From the UHGV virus genome UHGV-0288843: a stretch of 34,774 bases of DNA. The stretch is one strand, 5' to 3'. The position numbers and the translations under genes are program-made. The notes below the pieces were generated by a model. That model was not told the DNA's origin and did not search any database. It was given only the letters and a program-made list of their open reading frames with translations. Source of the DNA: a virus. Below, one piece after another: positions 5,190 through 27,727 of this stretch; position 1 is the first letter of the stretch; every line of letters starts with the position of its first letter.

Positions 5190-6056
5190 TTACTCTCCTC
5201 CCGACAATTCTTGTATTTGTCTTTTTAGAGCTGCTTGCTCTTCTGGTGATAATTTTTCCTCTTCTTGTTTTGGTTCATTTACCCAATCTGGTAATTGCTC
5301 TTGTCTAACTGGAGGATTCGTATATCTTGCTTGCGTTGTCGTTTCAGATAAGTCGTATTCATCGTTAAAACGTTCATCACGTATCCAGCGGAACAATTCT
5401 TGTGGATGATACCAGTCGTTTAATTTGATATACTTAAGATAAGCTTTGTATCCTGTTTTAAACCGTTCGAAGTCTTCATCTGACTTAATTTTCTTTAAGA
5501 ATTGCTCTTTGGCTTTTTTCTTATTGGTTTTCTTCGGATATGTTTTCCAAACTTTTTCGAATAATTCAAGCATAGTTGAGCTCGGCTCAACACTATTCTT
5601 TTTTTTATCCTTAACTAACCTATCCTTACCTAACCTAACCTGTGTATCCATTTGGTATCCCATACGGTTGTCATCTGGTATACCAAGATGGTTTTCACTC
5701 TCTATAACCTCGGTTTTAAAGGTATATGCCTTACTATTTTTCTCAGCTAATTCAGCCTTTTCTTCTTGATATAGAGTTGGTTTGTATCGATCATTTCGAA
5801 TATAGTTATGAATTTTCCAATGCTTGATAACAATAACTCCGCTATCAAAAACTAAAATGAATCTTTTGGCCATTAATAGCTTTAGATCATCATCTCCACA
5901 TCCAACCATTCGTTGGATTTTCTTAGGATTATTAATAAATCCATCATCATCCGCTCGCATTGACAAATGAAAGTAAAGAGATTGAGTTGACAGCGGCATG
6001 TCTAAAAATGCATCGCTATCAATGATGGTCTTTGCAAACATTCTTCTTTCAGCCAC
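5190..6056 (-). CDS. phage replisome organiser / DnaD-like replication initiation protein
   Basis: The N-terminus MAERRMFAKTIIDSDAFLDMP...SLYFHL matches the replisome-organiser N-terminal domain. Internal GGTTAG iterons are present. Confidence 0.6.
   Translation of the reverse strand: MAERRMFAKTIIDSDAFLDMPLSTQSLYFHLSMRADDDGFINNPKKIQRMVGCGDDDLKLLMAKRFILVFDSGVIVIKHWKIHNYIRNDRYKPTLYQEEKAELAEKNSKAYTFKTEVIESENHLGIPDDNRMGYQMDTQVRLGKDRLVKDKKKNSVEPSSTMLELFEKVWKTYPKKTNKKKAKEQFLKKIKSDEDFERFKTGYKAYLKYIKLNDWYHPQELFRWIRDERFNDEYDLSETTTQARYTNPPVRQEQLPDWVNEPKQEEEKLSPEEQAALKRQIQELSGGE
5593..5650. repeat. Candidate origin of replication: four GGTTAG (CTAACC) direct repeats plus an adjacent A/T run, inside the replisome organiser gene
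   Basis: Plus strand reads ...ctttttttta tcc ttaactaacc tatccttacc taacctaacc tg. Iterons inside the organiser gene are typical of Firmicute phage origins. Confidence 0.4.
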
Positions 6057-6060
6057 CGTT

Positions 6061-6702
6061 CTATCCTCCTATGTTTAACTTTTTACGTTCTTCGATGTTT
6101 AATTTCACTGGTTTAATTTGATACTTATTCAAGAAGTTCTTAGTGCCTATTTGGTGTTCCTCTTGATGGTGTTGACGGCAACCAGCATAAAATGTGAATG
6201 TCTCATGATTGATTTTTTTACGATTACGCCCCATACCAACAACTTCAATATGGCAAACATCAGCATGCTTACCGCAAATACAGCACTTACGATATTTCAG
6301 GCAGTAATAAAACCATTTGTTGTTTTCAAGCAAGTATTGGTATCTTTTTTCTAGCGGTATATCGTTTTTCAAAATGAACTCAATCAAGAAACCGATCCAC
6401 TCAGTCGCTTCATTCTTGGTAGCTCGACTATGTTCAAAATAAACACCACTCTTAGCTTCGTAGTAGTATTTCAAGACACTTTCAATCCATTTAGGTTCGT
6501 CATAGCTCCAACGTGCCACATCGGCTATTAGAACGTGAGAAAGTGCATTCTGTTTTTGAGACATTTGTCGATTATCTAAGAATTCAACTTTCGCTAAATT
6601 ATCATCGTTATTAGCCAGAAGTTCGAGAAAATTTGAATTTATTTCATCCTCAAATTCGATAGCCAATTTATTCCCTTTATGATTTATGATTTTTCCAATC
6701 AT
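6061..6702 (-). CDS. Cys/His-rich (HNH-like zinc-binding) early protein
   Basis: The C-terminus CCICGKHADVCHIEVVGMGRNRKKINHETFTFYAGCRQHHQEEH is typical of HNH-type nuclease or zinc-finger modules. Confidence 0.4.
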   Translation of the reverse strand: MIGKIINHKGNKLAIEFEDEINSNFLELLANNDDNLAKVEFLDNRQMSQKQNALSHVLIADVARWSYDEPKWIESVLKYYYEAKSGVYFEHSRATKNEATEWIGFLIEFILKNDIPLEKRYQYLLENNKWFYYCLKYRKCCICGKHADVCHIEVVGMGRNRKKINHETFTFYAGCRQHHQEEHQIGTKNFLNKYQIKPVKLNIEERKKLNIGG

Positions 6703-6706
6703 TCAA

Positions 6707-7393
6707 TCACTTCTTTTCTTTTTTTGCCTTTTCTGCTTGGTTCGTAGCTTGAGCGATTAGACGGCCAATCATTCCATAATGTTGTTTGTTCATTTGTTCT
6801 AGTTTTGTTATTTTATCTAATTGTGGATAGCTCTCTTCAATCCATAAATTTAAACGCTTAATCATTTCTTCTGTTGCATCAAAACCAACGATTTCGCTCA
6901 ATGCTGATAATGCTGCTTCTGTTTTTTCCAGGTCTTTCACTTCAATTGTTGGAGGCTCTGGTAAATCTTCACCTCTATAGATATATAATCCTAACCCATG
7001 TTTTGCTAACGCCTTAACAAATGCACGTTTCAATGCTTTATTTACCTGCGTCATTGTCGGCGATGTTACATCGTTATTTTTAAAATCTAAAATAGGGTAT
7101 ATTTCTGTTTCTTCGACTTCTTTAAAAAGTACAGAGACTTCTACATATGAACCACCATTTGTTGTCTGATATGGTAATTCTTTTGATACTAAAAACTCTT
7201 TTCGCTCTCCCTTGACTACCATCCAATGTTCAAACTCACGAATAGAAATAATGGCGTTTGGATCATGCTTCTTCATAAGTTCGTGAGCATCAGACCACGA
7301 TAGATAATTGAACTTTCCTTTTTGTTGTATACGTTTTGATACATCTATTTCAGTCATTTTTTGAAAATCCGTAATAATCTTTTTCTCAGTCAT
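6707..7393 (-). CDS. putative Rad52-like single-strand annealing protein (Sak/DUF1071-type), tentative
   Basis: KFNYLSWSDAHELMKKHDPNA resembles the Sak/Rad52-like motif. The gene sits in a recombination/replication module. Confidence 0.4.
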   Translation of the reverse strand: MTEKKIITDFQKMTEIDVSKRIQQKGKFNYLSWSDAHELMKKHDPNAIISIREFEHWMVVKGERKEFLVSKELPYQTTNGGSYVEVSVLFKEVEETEIYPILDFKNNDVTSPTMTQVNKALKRAFVKALAKHGLGLYIYRGEDLPEPPTIEVKDLEKTEAALSALSEIVGFDATEEMIKRLNLWIEESYPQLDKITKLEQMNKQHYGMIGRLIAQATNQAEKAKKEKK

Positions 7394-22900: not shown

Positions 22901-23255
22901 AACTTGTTACGTTTTCCATATATGCATTCGCTGATAACCCAGATGTTTTATACGCTTCATCTGCATACTTTTTTACTTTGTCCGCACTACCTTTGAATAA
23001 TGTTTCAATCCCACCGAGGGATTGTTGTAGATTTGCTCCTTCTGAAATTGCGGTAGAGAATGCAGTTTTAATTGATGAAATAGCTTTGCCTACAACTGCA
23101 GAAGCAACTTTTACTAATCCCATTGAGATAGCTAAATTTTTTATAGAAAAACCAGCTTTGTCACTACTGCCTTCCAATTGATCTAGCTGGCTGTTAAGCC
23201 CAGCTACACTTTTACCATTAACATCAACATCAATTACAACTTGCCCATCAGCCAT
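19935..23255 (-). CDS. tail tape measure protein
   Basis: Size is 1106 aa. N-terminal coiled coil, central transmembrane-like hydrophobic block, and long tandem ~11-aa periodic repeats (..GI.NN...I.DA..NL..). Confidence 0.85.
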   Translation of the reverse strand: MADGQVVIDVDVNGKSVAGLNSQLDQLEGSSDKAGFSIKNLAISMGLVKVASAVVGKAISSIKTAFSTAISEGANLQQSLGGIETLFKGSADKVKKYADEAYKTSGLSANAYMENVTSFSASLLQSVGGDTEKAADVANMAMIDMSDNANKMGTNMQDIQNAYQGFAKQNYTMLDNLKLGYGGTKEEMQRLLSDAEKLTGVKYDISNLSDVYNAIHAIQENLDITGTTAKEAAETLSGSFAAMKASLSNVLGKMALGQDIQPSLNQLAETTATFLFGNFIPMIGNILKALPRAIVTFVKASIPHVKAAFAELLDSIGDKFPIFDKLFELISKNAQIIKFLGSVIVGAIAGFIAFKATIGIMNSVKTAINGVKTAFSLMKVAMMANPFAVVIAGIGALIAAFIYFYKTSDTFRNKVDGMVLTLKSFMKPIDQVFKGLKLLSKGFVEMLTNGPGEKIAELRSQFIKLFPESLWQGMINFTGKINDMKLGIKAIGKIMSGSIKNMSELGNFLEGAFTVKGEQNIMKIGKAIKNVIDSLKKLINPTERVGKSFDIVGVGLKILKMVILGMMGPVGLFIKVFELLAKALGGGDVNKGIDTIMNSFKGLAEGIKTYGPQLGTNFGTALQGILGAIANALPGIITGALQVVSGFISGIAQGLPSIVVSAGELIMAFTNGIVTLLPIIAQSAVQIINALTNGILLVMPTIIESATMIITTFLGSLTEALPKLLGAGASLINALLQGITEQLPKIVQNMATLIITWLSELNKHLPDILQAGFNLLINFLRGIANNIGKVTNEAISIIVNFVNAIGNRMGDIIDAAVNLMINFLNGLSSRMPDIIDAGVTLIVSVLQGISNNLSRIVDAGMDLVVKCIEGIGNNLYRLVNAAADLVDKLVENIINFSDRMWKAAIRLINGLAEGIDNNKEEAREAVKRLVNSLGSAIVGDELWDAGTSLMGGLLKGIKWGFEKVKGFVSGIADTIASLKGPIPYDKKVLIDNGSALMFGLEKGIIAGFDNVKHLTSNMADSISKELSFDNAFSNFNFTSPELALNTNMMGAANLGSQIVNNSNFAKTYNPTININIEHADLSNEKSIEETSQQLATLTERQTRGRL

Positions 23256-23829
23256 CTTCTTCCTCCTCTCCTAAGTCAGTATTAGGTAAGGCATATTTCC
23301 TTTTTAACTCTCGCATTCGACGTTTTTCTTTACTTGATTCCCCTTTTTGAGGTTCCCAATTCCTAATCTGAATAATCCTCTGCATAATACAATTATCTGG
23401 TAGACTCTCTAAAAGTGCTTGAAACTCTTCCCAACTCATTTTTCCTTGTTCTTCGAAAAGATTAATACCAATTTGACGAAAAGAAGCATAGATATACTTG
23501 GCATCATAAACCAAATCTATATCTTTACTATTTATTTTAGTTGGTAATTCATTGCCTAATTCATCAGTTTCAACTTCGGAATGTTGACCTAAAAGCAGGT
23601 ATTCATCATAAACGTATTTAAACATTTCAAATTTTTGTAGTATATCTAAATCAACTTCCCCAACTAAGATTAGAATCGAAAGTTCAATCTTATCTTCTAA
23701 TATCAAACTCTCATCTTGTATTATTTCAAAAACATCAAGGACATGATCAAACGCTAAGTTTATTGGAAATTCTTTGCCCAAAAACGAAAAGGATGTAGTC
23801 AGCGGATTATTCAACCGCATAATACTCAT
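23248..23829 (-). CDS. tail assembly chaperone, gpT-like portion (probably expressed as a G-T fusion by -1 frameshift)
   Basis: Lies in the -1 frame relative to the upstream chaperone gene, with an ATGA overlap. This is the conserved siphovirus G/GT arrangement. Confidence 0.5.
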   Translation of the reverse strand: MSIMRLNNPLTTSFSFLGKEFPINLAFDHVLDVFEIIQDESLILEDKIELSILILVGEVDLDILQKFEMFKYVYDEYLLLGQHSEVETDELGNELPTKINSKDIDLVYDAKYIYASFRQIGINLFEEQGKMSWEEFQALLESLPDNCIMQRIIQIRNWEPQKGESSKEKRRMRELKRKYALPNTDLGEEEEDG

Positions 23830-24245
23830 CCTTTCTTTTTGCTAACTTTTTTTAGATATTCTTGTTTTAATTTTTTTGATTTTTTACCACGCTCATCTAA
23901 TAATTCAGTCTGTTTCTTAGTGTATTCTTCAATAGATTCACTAATACCTACTGATAAATCGTAAAAGGCGTTTAGCCATGCGATTATGTCTGGGATGTCT
24001 TTATACAAAATTGCAAACGTACCTTCACCAAGTACGGAATCATACCCTTTTGTCAACACAGAAATATATAATTCATCACTCATTTCCTCAGAATTTTCAT
24101 CTAAGTCTTTCAGTTCTTGTACGACTTTATCGTACGTTTCTTCATATTCTTTTATATGCTCTAATGAACAATCAAAGAAAAATTCGTGCCCAGCAATTTT
24201 CACTGGAAAACCAGTACGCTCTACTTTAATCTCTAATGCTTTCAT
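23826..24245 (-). CDS. tail assembly chaperone (gpG-like)
   Basis: 139-aa acidic protein between the major tail protein genes and the tape measure. Confidence 0.5.
   Translation of the reverse strand: MKALEIKVERTGFPVKIAGHEFFFDCSLEHIKEYEETYDKVVQELKDLDENSEEMSDELYISVLTKGYDSVLGEGTFAILYKDIPDIIAWLNAFYDLSVGISESIEEYTKKQTELLDERGKKSKKLKQEYLKKVSKKKG
23835..23841 (-). promoter_or_regulatory. Candidate -1 frameshift site (C AAA AAG) giving the G-T chaperone fusion
   Basis: It is the only slippery site downstream of the last -1-frame stop (TAG). It lies 9 nt before the G stop codon. Confidence 0.35.
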
Positions 24246-24297: not shown

Positions 24298-24750
24298 TTA
24301 TGCTTGATTATTAAGTGTTAAGGTATGTTGTGCTGTTTTCTTACCATCCTCTGTTTCGCCTTCGGTAACATAAGTACCAACTGGTACCGTTTCTGTCCAA
24401 GTAATATTACCTGTTTCAGAGACAGCAAGGCCTTCTGTTACAGGCGTAATAGAATAGTTTACTTTTTTATTTGTAGCATTTTCAGGCAAAACAGTTGCTG
24501 TGATTTGTCGGCTACCTGCAGTACCCGCATTTGCTGTGGACGTTTTAGGAGAAAACTCTAAGCCTGTTACAGCAATTGGCGATGTTTTAAATGACGGTAC
24601 ATCTACTTTTTCGCCGCCGTCTGCAAAACCTACTTTGTATGTTCCTGATGGAACGTCGGTGTTTGGCTCAATACCTGTAATTTCTAGAGGGCTTGGACTA
24701 GCCGGAACAATGACTTCCTCACCTTTATAAACAATATACTCTCTAGCCAT
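24298..24750 (-). CDS. Ig-like (Big_2) domain tail protein, encoded as a separate gene after the major tail protein
   Basis: The C-terminal 80 aa (TGLEFSPKTSTANAGTAGSRQITATVLPENATNKKVNYSITPV...) match the bacterial Ig-like fold. It has its own ribosome-binding site. Confidence 0.55.
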   Translation of the reverse strand: MAREYIVYKGEEVIVPASPSPLEITGIEPNTDVPSGTYKVGFADGGEKVDVPSFKTSPIAVTGLEFSPKTSTANAGTAGSRQITATVLPENATNKKVNYSITPVTEGLAVSETGNITWTETVPVGTYVTEGETEDGKKTAQHTLTLNNQA

Positions 24751-24752
24751 TC

Positions 24753-24833
24753 TTATTCTCCTTTCTCCATTTCAATGATTACCCCAGTTTTAGTCGGAGT
24801 CATTTTACCGATTACTGGGGTTATACTTTTGGG
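24753..24833 (-). promoter_or_regulatory. -1 programmed ribosomal frameshift cassette at the 3' end of the major tail protein gene. It has the slippery heptamer C CCA AAA (24827-24833), a 6-nt spacer, a stem-loop (24782-24820), and an open -1 frame for ~24 extra codons ending at TAA (24753)
   Basis: Read directly from the sequence. See findings. Confidence 0.55.
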
Positions 24834-25300
24834 GTGATATTAGGTAAGGTATCAAAGGTAATCGTGCAGCTGAAATCTTCATACTCTGTCGCATCTCCTG
24901 CACCAGCGACAATATCTGTTACTGTTGCACGCCCTACATAAGTATCGCCATTCGTCATAATAATTTTATGCCAAATCTTACGATTTTCTCCAATTTTGTA
25001 TTTTTTACTTGCAATTAATTTTTGTGCGGGATCTTCTGGGTCATAAAATCCTTCAGGACTATAAGCACCAGAAACAGAAGTCACTGTAGTTTCTGGTGTA
25101 CCATCGCCATCATAGAAACCTGCATCGTCCGTTTCTTCATCGGTATCATCGCCAATTGAACTAATGTACTTGGCAAGACGTTTCCACTCTAACTCGGTAG
25201 TTGGTGTTGTTTCTTTCCCAGGTACATACTCAGCAATAAAATGCTGCCGTTTTGCATTTTTGTTCCGTGCAAACATTTGAATATTCATTTTTAATAACAT
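24821..25300 (-). CDS. major tail protein
   Basis: 159-aa protein positioned between the tail completion proteins and the chaperone/tape-measure genes. Ribosome-binding site is AAGGAGG. Confidence 0.55.
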   Translation of the reverse strand: MLLKMNIQMFARNKNAKRQHFIAEYVPGKETTPTTELEWKRLAKYISSIGDDTDEETDDAGFYDGDGTPETTVTSVSGAYSPEGFYDPEDPAQKLIASKKYKIGENRKIWHKIIMTNGDTYVGRATVTDIVAGAGDATEYEDFSCTITFDTLPNITPKV

Positions 25301-25698
25301 TAATTTTCCTCCTTAAATGTGGTTAATTTTGCTTGAAAATCTAATAAAAAAACGAACCAACCTTGTTCATCAGCTTCATTAATGAACGGTTTGCTCGTTA
25401 TCATTAAATTATTACACTCAAAAGAGCCATCTTTACTTGATAATTCTTCAATACTTTCTAATACATCTGAAAGAAGCCACAACGTATGCTCTAACTTATT
25501 ACCGTCTTTTGATTTCATGGCAATTTCATAGTTTAACAACTCGTCTTTGATTCCGTCATAATATTCGGTTTCTACCTTACCGCCCGGTAATGAGTAAATC
25601 ACTAAACTTTCTAGTGCTGAAAGGTATCCTTTCCGGATATTTAACGGCAAATTTGGAATCTGATTTATCCTTTCGTTTAAACAATCAAGAAAATCCAT
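25300..25698 (-). CDS. tail completion / tail terminator-like protein
   Basis: Synteny: fourth gene of the head-tail joining block. Confidence 0.4.
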   Translation of the reverse strand: MDFLDCLNERINQIPNLPLNIRKGYLSALESLVIYSLPGGKVETEYYDGIKDELLNYEIAMKSKDGNKLEHTLWLLSDVLESIEELSSKDGSFECNNLMITSKPFINEADEQGWFVFLLDFQAKLTTFKEEN

Positions 25699-26024
25699 TA
25701 TTTAATACCCGCTCCTTTCAAAAAGGCACGTTCCCACGAATTCATATAAGCACCTTTTGCTTTTAAATCCCACCGTGGTCCAGTCCCAGGCGTAGTATAT
25801 TTTTTTCCATTTAGATAAAATTGGCGTTTCGCATATTTTGTACCATAAATAATCTTTTCACCTTCACTTGATAAATGAGCGCTTTGCCTTAAACTATTAT
25901 TTTTTCGTGGTACAAATTGATTCATATCTGCCATCGCTTGATTACCCAGCGCATATCTGCCTCGTCTCATTGCCTCAGGGCTTACTTTGGTTCTTACACC
26001 GCTTAAATTCACCTTAATCCCCAT
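25698..26024 (-). CDS. head-tail joining protein (HK97 gp10-like)
   Basis: Synteny and size (108 aa). Confidence 0.4.
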   Translation of the reverse strand: MGIKVNLSGVRTKVSPEAMRRGRYALGNQAMADMNQFVPRKNNSLRQSAHLSSEGEKIIYGTKYAKRQFYLNGKKYTTPGTGPRWDLKAKGAYMNSWERAFLKGAGIK

Positions 26025-26365
26025 CAGACTACCTCAATCTCATACGAGTAGACATCATTCGAATAGGCTTCAATTACGGTATCAACTTTAGTGATTACGT
26101 GTTCTTTGTCATCGTAAATAACTACTGATTGTTCTTTGAACTCAGGCAAAGGCGTAGTCAATTCGTGATAACAGAAAATCAATCCGTTATACAGCAATTG
26201 TTTGCCACTTGATGAAAAAGTATATTGGCTTCCTCTGTCAATTCGGCAATACTCAATAAGGATCGGTTCCTTGTATACTGGCTTGTTCCAATCGCCCTCC
26301 CCTAAGTACTCTTTATACTCAAAGGAATCAACTAAGAATTTTTTGGGTGGCTTTGGCATTAGCAT
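26024..26365 (-). CDS. head closure protein (gp16-like)
   Basis: Synteny and size (113 aa). Confidence 0.4.
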   Translation of the reverse strand: MLMPKPPKKFLVDSFEYKEYLGEGDWNKPVYKEPILIEYCRIDRGSQYTFSSSGKQLLYNGLIFCYHELTTPLPEFKEQSVVIYDDKEHVITKVDTVIEAYSNDVYSYEIEVV

Positions 26366-26763
26366 GACGAAACACCTCGATATAACAAACCTGTACCTTC
26401 CAGATACAAATAAACGTCTTCGGCAGTTAACGACTTACTTTCGTTATTTCCAGAAGGATTGTAGCGACTGGCATTAGAAATACTCGTACGGCCTGCTGAA
26501 AAGCTTTGAGGGGCATTGTTGATACTTTCATACGTATCCGCACCAACATCGACAAAATACATTATTTGCGCACACAGAGCGAGTTTAAACTGTTTCACTC
26601 TAAATTGCCTAGAATCTTTCGTTATATCATTGAACTGATAAAAGTAATTCGTTACATTATCAATCGCTGCGGTGGCTTTTACTAAATATTTGTCAAAGTT
26701 ATCTTTATATTCATCTGCGGCGCCTGTAAGCTCTTTAAACTCTTCAAAATCAATATAGGACAT
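26359..26763 (-). CDS. head-tail connector protein (gp6/gp15-like)
   Basis: First gene after the capsid gene. Size is 134 aa. Confidence 0.5.
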   Translation of the reverse strand: MSYIDFEEFKELTGAADEYKDNFDKYLVKATAAIDNVTNYFYQFNDITKDSRQFRVKQFKLALCAQIMYFVDVGADTYESINNAPQSFSAGRTSISNASRYNPSGNNESKSLTAEDVYLYLEGTGLLYRGVSSC

Positions 26764-26792
26764 CTTAGATTCCTCCTAAAAAAAGAAGGAGA

Positions 26793-26873
26793 CTAAGCTC
26801 CTTCTTCCATTTCAATAACAACCCCGCTTGTTGTCGGCGTTAGTTTACCAACTTTCGGGGCTACACTTTTGGG
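26793..26873 (-). promoter_or_regulatory. -1 programmed ribosomal frameshift cassette at the 3' end of the major capsid gene. It has the slippery heptamer C CCA AAA (26867-26873), a 6-nt spacer, a stem-loop (26822-26860), and an open -1 frame for ~24 extra codons ending at TAG (26793). An intrinsic terminator hairpin follows (26778-26808)
   Basis: Read directly from the sequence. See findings. Confidence 0.55.
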
Positions 26874-27727
26874 GCAACACCTTTAATAATCGCTTTAGCA
26901 TTTTTTTCAGGGATATATTTGCCATACTTACCTGCCGCTTGTAACGCTGTGCCTGCGAAATCTTCTGAATCCATAGCACGTGCTACTTGAATACCTACGC
27001 CAGCTACACCTACGTTATCAGCTGAAAAAATTGCTACCTCATTTGGTTGAAATTTTTCATCTGGTAACTCTTCTAAAACAAACCCTTTAAATTTGTATAA
27101 AGTTTGTTCATCAACATTAGCGGATGAATTTTTAGAAGTTGTTGCAAGTTTTGAATCAATTAATAAGTCGTAAACGTCTGAATTAACATAGGCAACCCAT
27201 GCAACGTTTTGAGAAACATTGTTATTAACAAATTTCTTATGAGCATTAGAAAATAGTTTTGTAATACCAGCTTCATCTAATGTAGTGGTTAGTTCTTCAC
27301 TTGCATTGTCAGATAATGCTTTGCCTAACAAGTTATCCACATGTTGCGCCCAGGCAACAGCATGCAAAGCTAAGCGCTCTGCTACAACTTGATCAGGAAT
27401 ATCATTTACAGTAAACTGATCGACACCTTCATGAATTGAAAGTGGCGCTTCATATTTAACTTGTTTATTGACTGATTTAACTTCTTTACGTTTACCAAAA
27501 CGGCTTGAGCTGCCTGTCCCTGTTCCAAATCCTACATTTTCATCTGTCGAATATGCTTGAATAACAACGTCCGTATCTGTAACTTTCAAATCTAGAAATG
27601 TATCGTTTTGAGAGACTCCGTCTTTTGTCTGTAAAGTACCTCCGAAAGCACGTAAAAATACTGCTTTTTTAGCAAACAGTTCTGGCAAAATACCTGCATA
27701 TTGTTTAGTGTAATATTTGATTGACAT
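26861..27727 (-). CDS. major capsid protein
   Basis: 288-aa protein immediately after the scaffold gene. A strong terminator lies downstream. Confidence 0.7.
   Translation of the reverse strand: MSIKYYTKQYAGILPELFAKKAVFLRAFGGTLQTKDGVSQNDTFLDLKVTDTDVVIQAYSTDENVGFGTGTGSSSRFGKRKEVKSVNKQVKYEAPLSIHEGVDQFTVNDIPDQVVAERLALHAVAWAQHVDNLLGKALSDNASEELTTTLDEAGITKLFSNAHKKFVNNNVSQNVAWVAYVNSDVYDLLIDSKLATTSKNSSANVDEQTLYKFKGFVLEELPDEKFQPNEVAIFSADNVGVAGVGIQVARAMDSEDFAGTALQAAGKYGKYIPEKNAKAIIKGVAPKV

Follow-up and report, generated by a model that had tools for sequence, protein, structure and literature searches.

In a stretch of 34,774 nucleotides (nt) of the virus genome UHGV-0288843 (the window), the genes for the major capsid protein (MCP) and the major tail (tube) protein both end in a cassette with the layout of a -1 ribosomal frameshift signal, and the -1 frames of the two cassettes encode nearly the same 24-residue peptide. 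A first-pass annotation of the sequence had taken the two to be paralogous frameshift cassettes, and every computational test that was run agrees. As judged from the sequence, recoding most likely adds the peptide to a fraction of the capsid and tail subunits. We favour, with moderate confidence, the view that the peptide would act as a docking tag, dosed by frameshifting, and that this tag, as one part of a split fibronectin type III (FN3) domain, would attach a single immunoglobulin (Ig)-like decoration protein to head and tail.

The capsid gene (26861-27727, minus strand, 288 amino acids (aa)) matches PHROG 840, 'major head protein', with an E-value (E) of 1.5e-135. It is preceded by a Phage_scaffold gene and followed by a head-tail adaptor gene, and its product shares 80% identity with its counterparts in Lactococcus phages of the P335 type and S. 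thermophilus phages of the 987 type. All sequence statements on the two cassettes were checked on the minus strand. The zero frame of the capsid gene ends GCC CCA AAA GUG UAG (GTG TAG in the DNA), which contains the slippery heptamer C_CCA_AAA in phase (X_XXY_YYZ) at 26867-26873, as had been claimed. A spacer of 6 nt (GTGTAG) separates the heptamer from CCCCG, at the start of a candidate stimulatory stem-loop (26819-26863). In the outer stem, (UAG)CCCCG/CGGGG(UUG), CCCCG at 26860-26856 pairs with CGGGG at 26826-26822, and the inner helix, GUUGGU/GCCGAC, includes one U.G pair; coordinates and RNAfold both bear out the first-pass description of spacer, stem and inner helix. RNAfold gave a minimum free energy (MFE) of -18.6 kcal/mol (z = -3.5), and none of 200 shuffled sequences was as stable. 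In the minimum-energy fold the UAG is drawn into the stem, bringing the spacer down to 3 nt. Read from the heptamer, the -1 frame is PKSVAPKVGKLTPTTSGVVIEMEEGA, with its stop codon at 26795-26793, and the extension PK-SVAPKVGKLTPTTSGVVIEMEEGA-stop (26793-26873), the proposed FN3 strands A-B, contains the peptide LTPTTSGVVIEMEEGA. This capsid tag is conserved in the relatives L002-L011, L100 and L117.

The same arrangement is found at the end of the tail gene (24821-25300, minus strand, 159 aa; PHROG 820, major tail protein, E 1e-60), which reads ACC CCA AAA GTA TAA and carries a second in-phase C_CCA_AAA at 24827-24833. Its predicted stem-loop, ACCCCAGU/ACUGGGGU with an inner UCGG/CCGA helix, lies at 24781-24821 (RNAfold MFE -16.9 kcal/mol, z -3.9; 0/200 shuffles as stable). 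The -1 frame in full is PKSITPVIGKMTPTKTGVIIEMEKGE followed by a stop, giving the extension PK-SITPVIGKMTPTKTGVIIEMEKGE-stop (the tail tag, 24753-24833), within which lies the peptide TGVIIEMEK. The final tail-tag codons, GAAAGGAG, double as the Shine-Dalgarno (SD) sequence of the 150-aa gene downstream. In capsid and tail genes alike, the zero-frame stop comes two codons past the heptamer and the stem-loop after it. An in-phase heptamer, a downstream structure and an open, conserved -1 frame, which at the level of sequence define a -1 frameshift signal, are present in both genes.

The two cassettes are 81 nt each and identical at 59 of 81 positions (72.8%), in keeping with the equal length and approximately 70% identity reported before, and in both the remaining two frames are closed by 2-4 stops per cassette. 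The count of identical codons had to be revised: in place of 13 identities in 23 codons, we found 11 in 27 (9 of 24 in the extension). The five synonymous codon pairs that had been listed are right and are joined by another, TAG/TAA, and the compensatory change in the stem (G-C to A-U) is real. Differences between the capsid and tail cassettes number 7/4/10 at codon positions 1/2/3, so that the claim of selection on the -1 frame finds only a modest third-position excess in the window pair itself; it is the wider set of tags described below that upholds it. Chance similarity of the cassettes was ruled out, since 59 of 81 nt are identical and only the -1 frame is open, and transcriptional slippage was likewise ruled out because C_CCA_AAA offers no long homopolymer.

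Of the two tail tags, that of the relative L002 is nearer to the capsid tag (19/24 residues by hand count) than the window's own, and the AAGGAG motif, which serves as the SD sequence in the tail cassette, is retained in the capsid cassette. Taken together, these two features of the sequence suggest that the capsid cassette was derived as a copy of a tail-type cassette, SD included. At the level of position, AAGAAGGAG at 26798-26806, the end of the capsid tag, is the counterpart of the tail SD GAAAGGAG at 24757-24764.

An intrinsic terminator had been placed immediately after the stop of the capsid extension. The terminator-like hairpin, AAGAAGGAG-CUUAGU-CUCCUUCUU plus a U tract (26778-26806, minus strand; RNAfold centroid), instead overlaps the extension: its last codons form the 5' arm and the extension stop lies within the loop. 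RNAfold gave 9-10 bp followed by U's, and a consensus/simple terminator scan did not list the hairpin. Rfam covariance models applied to 24600-27000 returned no family at threshold and only three chance-level matches.

Relatives of the capsid protein are encoded in 58 viral contigs, and the 3' ends of their genes are of three kinds. Nearly identical capsids carry the same short extension; in a second group (~80% identity) a slippery run and a CCCC...GGGG stem open into a full Big_2 Ig-like domain; in the third the extension is absent altogether. The pattern CCCAAAAGNNTARCCCC recurs in well over 100 viral contigs, at the 3' end of ORFs (open reading frames) of capsid or tail size. The -1 frame that follows holds a Big_2 domain in some, and in others a domain resembling HeH/SAP or a short peptide (18-24 aa); from this recurrence we regard the cassette as a widespread module. 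Approximately 60 distinct homologous tags were gathered from all fetched loci, and variability was computed on 58 of them. The tag frame is open in all 58, and the mean pairwise difference at codon positions 1/2/3 in that frame is 0.36/0.31/0.61.

The ways in which this peptide is reached differ considerably. The -1 sites leading into the tag comprise C_CCA_AAA, A_AAA_AAA, A_AAA_AAG, G_GGA_AAG, G_GGA_AAC, U_UUA_AAA and, most often, G_GGG_GAG followed by UAA; the +1 sites are CCC_UGA, CCC_UAA and CCC_UAG; and tail genes of the phiEf11 type encode the tag plainly in frame. Even the close relatives L190 and L241 differ, with a frameshifted version in the former and an in-frame version in the latter. 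Since the peptide is kept while the route to it changes, selection acts on the tag as a peptide. We are highly confident that the -1 frame is translated and under selection.

Across 48 distinct -1 cassettes, 68% of stem cells are paired compared with 63.5% in shuffled controls (0/500 as high), slid registers of the stem give only 31-50%, and double-sided stem changes number 74 against 40+-6.5 in shuffles. One stem pair at two wobble positions occurs as A-U, G-C, G-U and U-A. Covariation of the stem-loop across relatives, named in the first-pass annotation as a check, is present in that both pairing and covariation exceed the shuffled and slid controls, and we consider these statistics, drawn from related sequences, supportive. 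Loss of the stem in in-frame versions was seen only in the diverged L238 (-10.3 kcal/mol); the others are recent derivatives that retain the stem. Among the apparent -1 sites of 62 distinct cassettes, the most frequent (~24 of them) is (C/U)_GGG_GGA_G, read xCG GGG GAG UAA (for example L178 3908-3925 and 6425-6442), which departs from the canonical X_XXY_YYZ heptamer because only the Gly tRNA is able to re-pair. In many of these, an alternative hairpin between the G run and the CCCC downstream can form and would compete with the CCCC...GGGG stem.

The gene that follows the tail cassette (24298-24750, minus strand) encodes a 150-aa putative adaptor or decoration protein, ORF150, whose ATG lies 2 nt past the stop of the tail extension, with the SD sequence inside the last tag codons. 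In the database it is annotated as 'phage tail protein'. The AlphaFold2 (AF2) model of ORF150 (mean predicted local distance difference test, pLDDT, 93.6) consists of a C-terminal Big_2 domain, whose fold matches the Big_2 domains of the phi29 MCP, lambda gpV and T5 pb6, and an N-terminal beta domain of 57 residues (the N-domain), which we propose to be FN3 strands C-G. SPLEITG, the most conserved motif of the N-domain, has no strand partner or strand assignment in this model, as read from DSSP strings only. The N-domain is a family of its own that starts M..(F/Y)K(I/V)YKG. When 1.84 billion representatives were searched exhaustively with HMMER, 283 members came to light, and in 109 of the best 150 representatives the domain starts at residue 12 or earlier. 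Family members occur in phages of Enterococcus, Brochothrix, Bacillus, Oceanobacillus, Virgibacillus, Sporosarcina and Lentibacillus. The cargo behind the N-domain is interchangeable: Big_2, He_PIG, HeH/SAP, G5, threonine-rich mucin-like tails, FN3 or none at all, and the same types of cargo are either fused directly via the cassette or carried on an adaptor. In one E. faecalis protein of 160 aa, P0030, 28 N-domain residues (EYIVYKGEEVIVPAS.PSPLEITGIEPN) lie inside unrelated sequence, probably as a recombination or assembly scar.

The tags and the N-domain genes occur together. At 80 viral loci found via the N-domain, the tag ends a few bases upstream of the adaptor gene in nearly all. A second tag on the other major structural gene, 2-2.5 kb away, was found under a strict pattern in 44 of the 80, and the rest are for the most part loci with variant tags or on contigs that are cut off. 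Tags from the same phage resemble each other more (63%) than tags from different phages do (55%; permutation p<1e-4). Among the capsid relatives, an N-domain gene is present at all nine short-tag loci with enough flanking sequence and at none of the 48 others. When C_CCA_AAA sites are divided by the length of the extension, an N-domain gene accompanies 29 short extensions and is missing from 11, whereas for long extensions the numbers are 2 (both weak matches) and 63.

The position of the adaptor gene is not fixed. It follows the tail cassette in the window and in phiEf11-type phages but the capsid cassette in Oceanobacillus L178 and in L179-L187; where it follows the capsid cassette a terminator follows the tail cassette, a mirror image of the window. 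The distance from the tag stop to the next ATG is 2 nt in the window and L002, 1 nt in L003 and L005 and 14-17 nt elsewhere, and variants among close relatives preserve the peptide while altering the frame offset to the next ATG. Tandem adaptor genes with different C-terminal parts are present in L179 (4001-4991) and in L246, L257 and L258 (~5975-6730), the last three from contigs of 136-142 kb in which the tag is in frame; this suggests that different cargoes compete for, or are combined on, the same tags. Some adaptors have an apparently incomplete N-domain together with a tag-like peptide at their own C-terminus (P0207, P0219 and L250 5992-6522, reading ..VATNDDAKVTAK, ..TPTDEGATVKAK and ..ENVEVDPNEDSADVSAE*), and such proteins could form head-to-tail chains. 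Tandem adaptors, adaptor-borne tags and the occurrence of the same cargo in fused or adaptor-borne form all fit an interaction module.

What the two parts would form together is indicated by proteins in which they are joined. A tag-like segment (for example SPTLTELTPTKDGFTVKLT or PPTIESVTPTEDGAVVIVV) and an N-domain are contiguous in one chain in P0235, P0162, P0169, P0141 and P0202, with a loop of 6-8 residues between them. The last of these derives from locus L260, where a 276-aa tail gene ending TCT TTA AAA TAG CAAGCCCCG forms a U_UUA_AAA cassette of the same build, and the -1 frame runs without a stop through a tag-like segment, an N-domain and an FN3 domain. As modelled by AF2, P0202 (pLDDT 94.6; predicted template modelling score, pTM, 0.83) has strands 2-8 and 11-16 in its tag-like part, and the whole model can be laid over structures of FN3-FN3 tandems with more than 200 columns aligned. 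The VTI of SPVTITG is a strand in this unsplit protein, whereas the equivalent PLEITG, the conserved E-strand motif, is strandless in the model of the split ORF150. P0281 is a split counterpart with the same FN3 cargo as P0202. When the window's capsid tag and ORF150 N-domain were joined and compared with the L260 extension, the two were collinear over the junction (27/84 identical, BLASTP E 6e-11). A further profile (A3) was built from six joined sequences, each consisting of a tail or capsid tag plus an N-domain, with the window tail tag plus the ORF150 N-domain as its first row; it matched the L260 extension with an hhalign probability of 99.1%. In a sister subfamily, natural tag plus N-domain sequences gave a Pfam Big_6 match over the junction in three of three cases, and reversed or shuffled tags in none of six.

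Other searches returned less. Used against PDB sequences, a profile of six concatenations gave nothing significant (best match the 'decoration protein' 8eci, E 0.5), and a profile search of 5.8 billion proteins found no contiguous tag plus N-domain among its best 120 matches, although HMMER later found some. The 24-aa extension had no match in Pfam and is not the complete Ig-like or FN3 domain of Fraser-type extensions. An fn3 match obtained after artificial insertion of a Trp at the junction was not counted as evidence. On balance, tag (strands A-B) and N-domain (strands C-G) very probably descend from, and together make up, one FN3 domain, whose apparent split point, to go by the alignments and models, is the B-C loop.

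The mechanism that we propose starts with a minority of ribosomes, which would slip back one base on the heptamer as the tRNA-Pro re-pairs from CCA to CCC and the tRNA-Lys from AAA to AAA. These ribosomes would bypass the zero-frame stop and append 24 residues, giving rise to short and long forms of both the capsid and the tail-tube subunits, the long forms sharing a near-identical end. The tag would then complete the adaptor's incomplete FN3 domain in trans by strand complementation and anchor the Ig-like protein non-covalently on tagged capsid and tail subunits, and the efficiency of frameshifting would set the occupancy, or density, of the decoration. That tag and N-domain do bind in trans on the virion seems to us rather probable from the genomic pattern. 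We put it at about an even chance that many siphoviruses of Firmicutes possess such a two-part, non-covalent display system, made up of a half-domain tag of ~20 residues, reached by -1 or +1 shifts or coded in frame, and of one or two small adaptors with interchangeable cargo, among which self-tagged adaptors could chain.

Several observations weigh against this proposal. The N-domain alone is modelled by AF2 at a pLDDT of ~90 and may be stable without the tag. Pfam found no FN3 or Ig match for the first domain of the window's own tag plus N-domain concatenations, and the Big_6 scores of the sister subfamily, 21-24 bits, are below the Pfam gathering cut-off of 27.6. Approximately 32% of stem cells are unpaired in the fixed register, and a pseudoknot between the stem loop and downstream sequence (GUUA/UCAU) that fits both window cassettes is only 57% paired family-wide and lacks support at that level. 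The covariation and association counts come from related sequences and lack independence. Finally, the extension peptides of the homologous phiEf11 capsid protein were not found by mass spectrometry (MS) (PMC5221750); the shortness of the tryptic fragments may account for this.

It is conceivable that the frameshift tags act alone, as a subunit-contact arm in both lattices or as an assembly signal, with the adaptor binding otherwise or not at all and with tag and N-domain being merely the halves of a domain broken by a stop codon. The confident model of the isolated N-domain, a tag of just 24 aa and the 11 of 40 short-extension sites (from other tag families) at which no N-domain gene is detectable would all be compatible with this, but we consider it unlikely, because hundreds of phages spanning no fewer than seven genera keep the split, with a separate SD and ATG every time, and because a broken domain would not be copied onto a second structural gene. 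The tags, moreover, co-vary within phages and are absent whenever the adaptor gene is absent, and the C-terminal tags borne by the adaptors P0207, P0219 and L250 are sensible only if tag and N-domain interact. A more radical objection is that there is no productive frameshifting, the cassette having been copied by recombination and its open -1 frame being a relic of an ancestral Ig/FN3 extension. The mosaic nature of phage structural modules, the closeness of the capsid tag to the L002 tail tag, the retained AAGGAG and the failure of MS to detect the phiEf11 extension can be cited in its favour. It is nevertheless very improbable in view of the third-position excess over 58 tags, every one of them with an open tag frame and the alternative frames closed, of a peptide that survives changes of slippery site, of shift direction and even of the need for a shift, of the toggling between in-frame (L241) and frameshifted (L190) versions, and of the two capsid bands of phiEf11.

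Two further explanations keep the cassettes but change their output. A second recoding event or stop bypass might join the tail protein, FN3 and Big_2 covalently as one chain, after the manner of classical Ig-domain extensions; the tail-extension stop and the next ATG are merely 2 nt apart, and the unsplit relative L260 makes exactly such a chain. Since the next gene stands in no constant frame relative to the tag, and an SD and start codon are always there, we rejected a second recoding event fusing tag and ORF150 as hardly credible; besides, the capsid cassette is followed by a putative terminator and the head-tail adaptor gene, with no domain to be joined. Alternatively, the hairpins could function chiefly at the RNA level, in 3' end formation or stability of the transcript after the capsid gene and in translational coupling before ORF150, with the slippery site being incidental. 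The terminator-like hairpin does overlap the capsid extension and the tail extension does hold the SD of ORF150, but this explanation, too, has very little to recommend it: it accounts neither for an in-phase heptamer at both genes nor for a peptide that is conserved also in in-frame versions, and the stem-loop of the slippery site is separate from the terminator-like hairpin.

A number of related arrangements were noted in the course of the survey. An HeH/SAP-like extension of 45-75 aa (..KPT..TVDQIKAYLDA..ADLLALV) is reached via C_CCA_AAA-stop-CCCC at capsid-sized ORFs in L072, L080, L088, L093, L098, L102, L119, L137, L147, L155, L160 and L161, and the same motif is the cargo of many adaptor proteins, for example P0108-P0135. 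Paired short tags are also found in L062 (1705, 3998), L070, L118, L122 and L174, with SVAPQSVKSEGIKGGVKLTAK behind a 412-codon ORF and SVAPQSVKTIAKQGGELTIIAN behind a 278-codon ORF; the ORF of 82-85 aa after the SVAPQSVKSEGIKGGVKLTAK tag matches the N-domain profile despite an extra, helical-looking start, MADTPDRSAEFLKALQKG. Other short frameshift peptides, SLAPTVGAAKVGTAKLGGK and SVTPTVGSAKVGDATL, occur at capsid-sized and tail-sized ORFs in L085 (5566, 7965), L148, L163 and L165 and are followed by a small collagen-like ORF starting MAYTPNTWKDGD, which may represent an unrelated tag/partner system on the same cassette. In the distant relative L012 (6538-6860), the +1 frame of the tail gene opens into a complete FN3 domain (KPQTVTGVINSDGSIKVDWKS...), and similar extensions (P0283-P0294) are annotated, from spurious internal starts, as separate 'fibronectin type III domain-containing proteins'. 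After the adaptor gene of the window, at 23248-24245 on the minus strand, a DUF6673 protein (139 aa) and a Phage_Gp15 protein (193 aa) are encoded with an ATGA overlap; this pair occupies the usual place of the tail assembly chaperone pair.

It has been known for more than 20 years that frameshifting yields long forms of phage capsid and tail proteins, and the rationale for dosing them and the placement of Ig-like domains have mostly been discussed as chance domain shuffling. If our proposal is correct, one decoration protein would be placed on two unrelated lattices via a shared peptide, with its copy number tuned by recoding. This would amount to a natural tag/catcher system based on a split domain, and it would give phages a new reason to recode the 3' ends of structural genes. 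It would also account for the 'speculative' 21-aa extension of phiEf11, re-annotate hundreds of adaptor genes that now carry the label 'phage tail protein' or 'major tail protein', draw attention to short ORFs behind stop codons, which gene callers overlook, and provide a natural peptide/half-domain pair for the display of cargo on phage particles. In the literature covered, full-text searches on decoration by strand complementation, structures of Enterococcus phages, joint decoration of capsid and tail, and C-terminal extensions in common turned up neither a short tag shared by both genes nor a split FN3 domain nor the adaptor family.

That phages recode the 3' ends of their capsid and tail genes is in itself already known (PMC5009743, PMC5221750). 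Lactobacillus casei phage A2 makes gp5A/gp5B in the head and gp10A/gp10B in the tail via -1 frameshifting (Garcia 2004; Rodriguez 2005, as cited in PMC5221750 and PMC5009743). Like the window phage, A2 is a siphovirus of a Gram-positive host with a 3' -1 frameshift on both the major head and the major tail gene. Its slippery site is reportedly also C_CCA_AAA followed by a stem-loop, and its extensions are said to be whole domains, the one on the head protein being Ig-like and ~85 aa long. In contrast to such whole-domain extensions, the window has a 24-aa peptide on both genes, with the domain part on a separate gene product.

In the Listeria phages A118 and A500 a -1 shift occurs in cps and a +1 shift at CCC_UGA in tsh, and phage PSA uses a +1 shift in both (Zimmer 2003; Dorscht 2009, via PMC5009743). 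These phages resemble the window in the dual recoding of capsid and tail-shaft genes, for which the direction of the shift seems immaterial; the CCC_UGA site of A118 and A500 is also used by the relative L179 to reach its tag, and the structural module of the window is of the A118 type (Phage_Gp15, SPP1 portal, minor capsid 2). As far as the portions of that literature covered here go, the extensions of A118, A500 and PSA are reported as larger C-terminal modules, and no shared short tag or separate adaptor gene was found reported.

A close parallel is Enterococcus faecalis phage phiEf11. For its major head protein, ORF10, a -1 shift at A_AAA_AAA adding 21 aa has been proposed as the cause of two capsid bands ~3 kDa apart on gels, which the authors themselves call 'speculative' (PMC5221750). 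We found that the phiEf11 capsid gene ends TCA AAA AAA TAG, that its -1 frame reads KKIEAPKVESVIPTTDGASIVLS, homologous to the window tag, and that its cassette has the window's CCCCG...CGGGG stem. The phiEf11 tail protein ends, in frame, ...SPSVESVTPTFDGASTELS, and ORF16, which is ~70% identical to ORF150, comes directly after the tail gene, as in the window. The two phages differ in slippery site and capsid family, and in that the phiEf11 tail tag is in frame. The passages of the phiEf11 paper that deal with frameshifting and with ORFs 10, 15 and 16 do not connect the extension with either the C-terminus of the tail protein or ORF16 (PMC5221750).

Ig-like and FN3 extensions of phage structural proteins have been surveyed (Fraser 2006), and in SPP1 a shift at CCC_UAA places an FN3-type module on a fraction of the tail-tube subunits, gp17.1/gp17.1* (Auzat 2008; both as cited in PMC5221750 and PMC5009743). 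The sister tag subfamily (..TPQNVVVDANSKSASITAE) uses the SPP1-type CCC_UAA and resembles strands A-B of the FN3 extensions HPNAPQNVTGVLN.DGSVS..W. Whereas the FN3 module of SPP1 is contiguous and covalent, only strands A-B would be attached in the window phage and the rest would be supplied in trans. Completion of an incomplete Ig-like fold by a strand from another polypeptide is the principle of donor-strand complementation in chaperone-usher pili. By analogy of mechanism, the adaptors P0207 and P0219, with an apparently incomplete N-terminus and a C-terminal tag, could chain like pilins; the systems share no sequence kinship, it is the N-terminal A-B strands rather than the C-terminal G strand that would be missing, and no chaperone is known. 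Compared with the recoding described so far, the arrangement read from these sequences would go further in three respects: the extension is a 24-aa tag rather than a domain, it is reached by many routes, and it has a constant partner in a separate N-domain gene.

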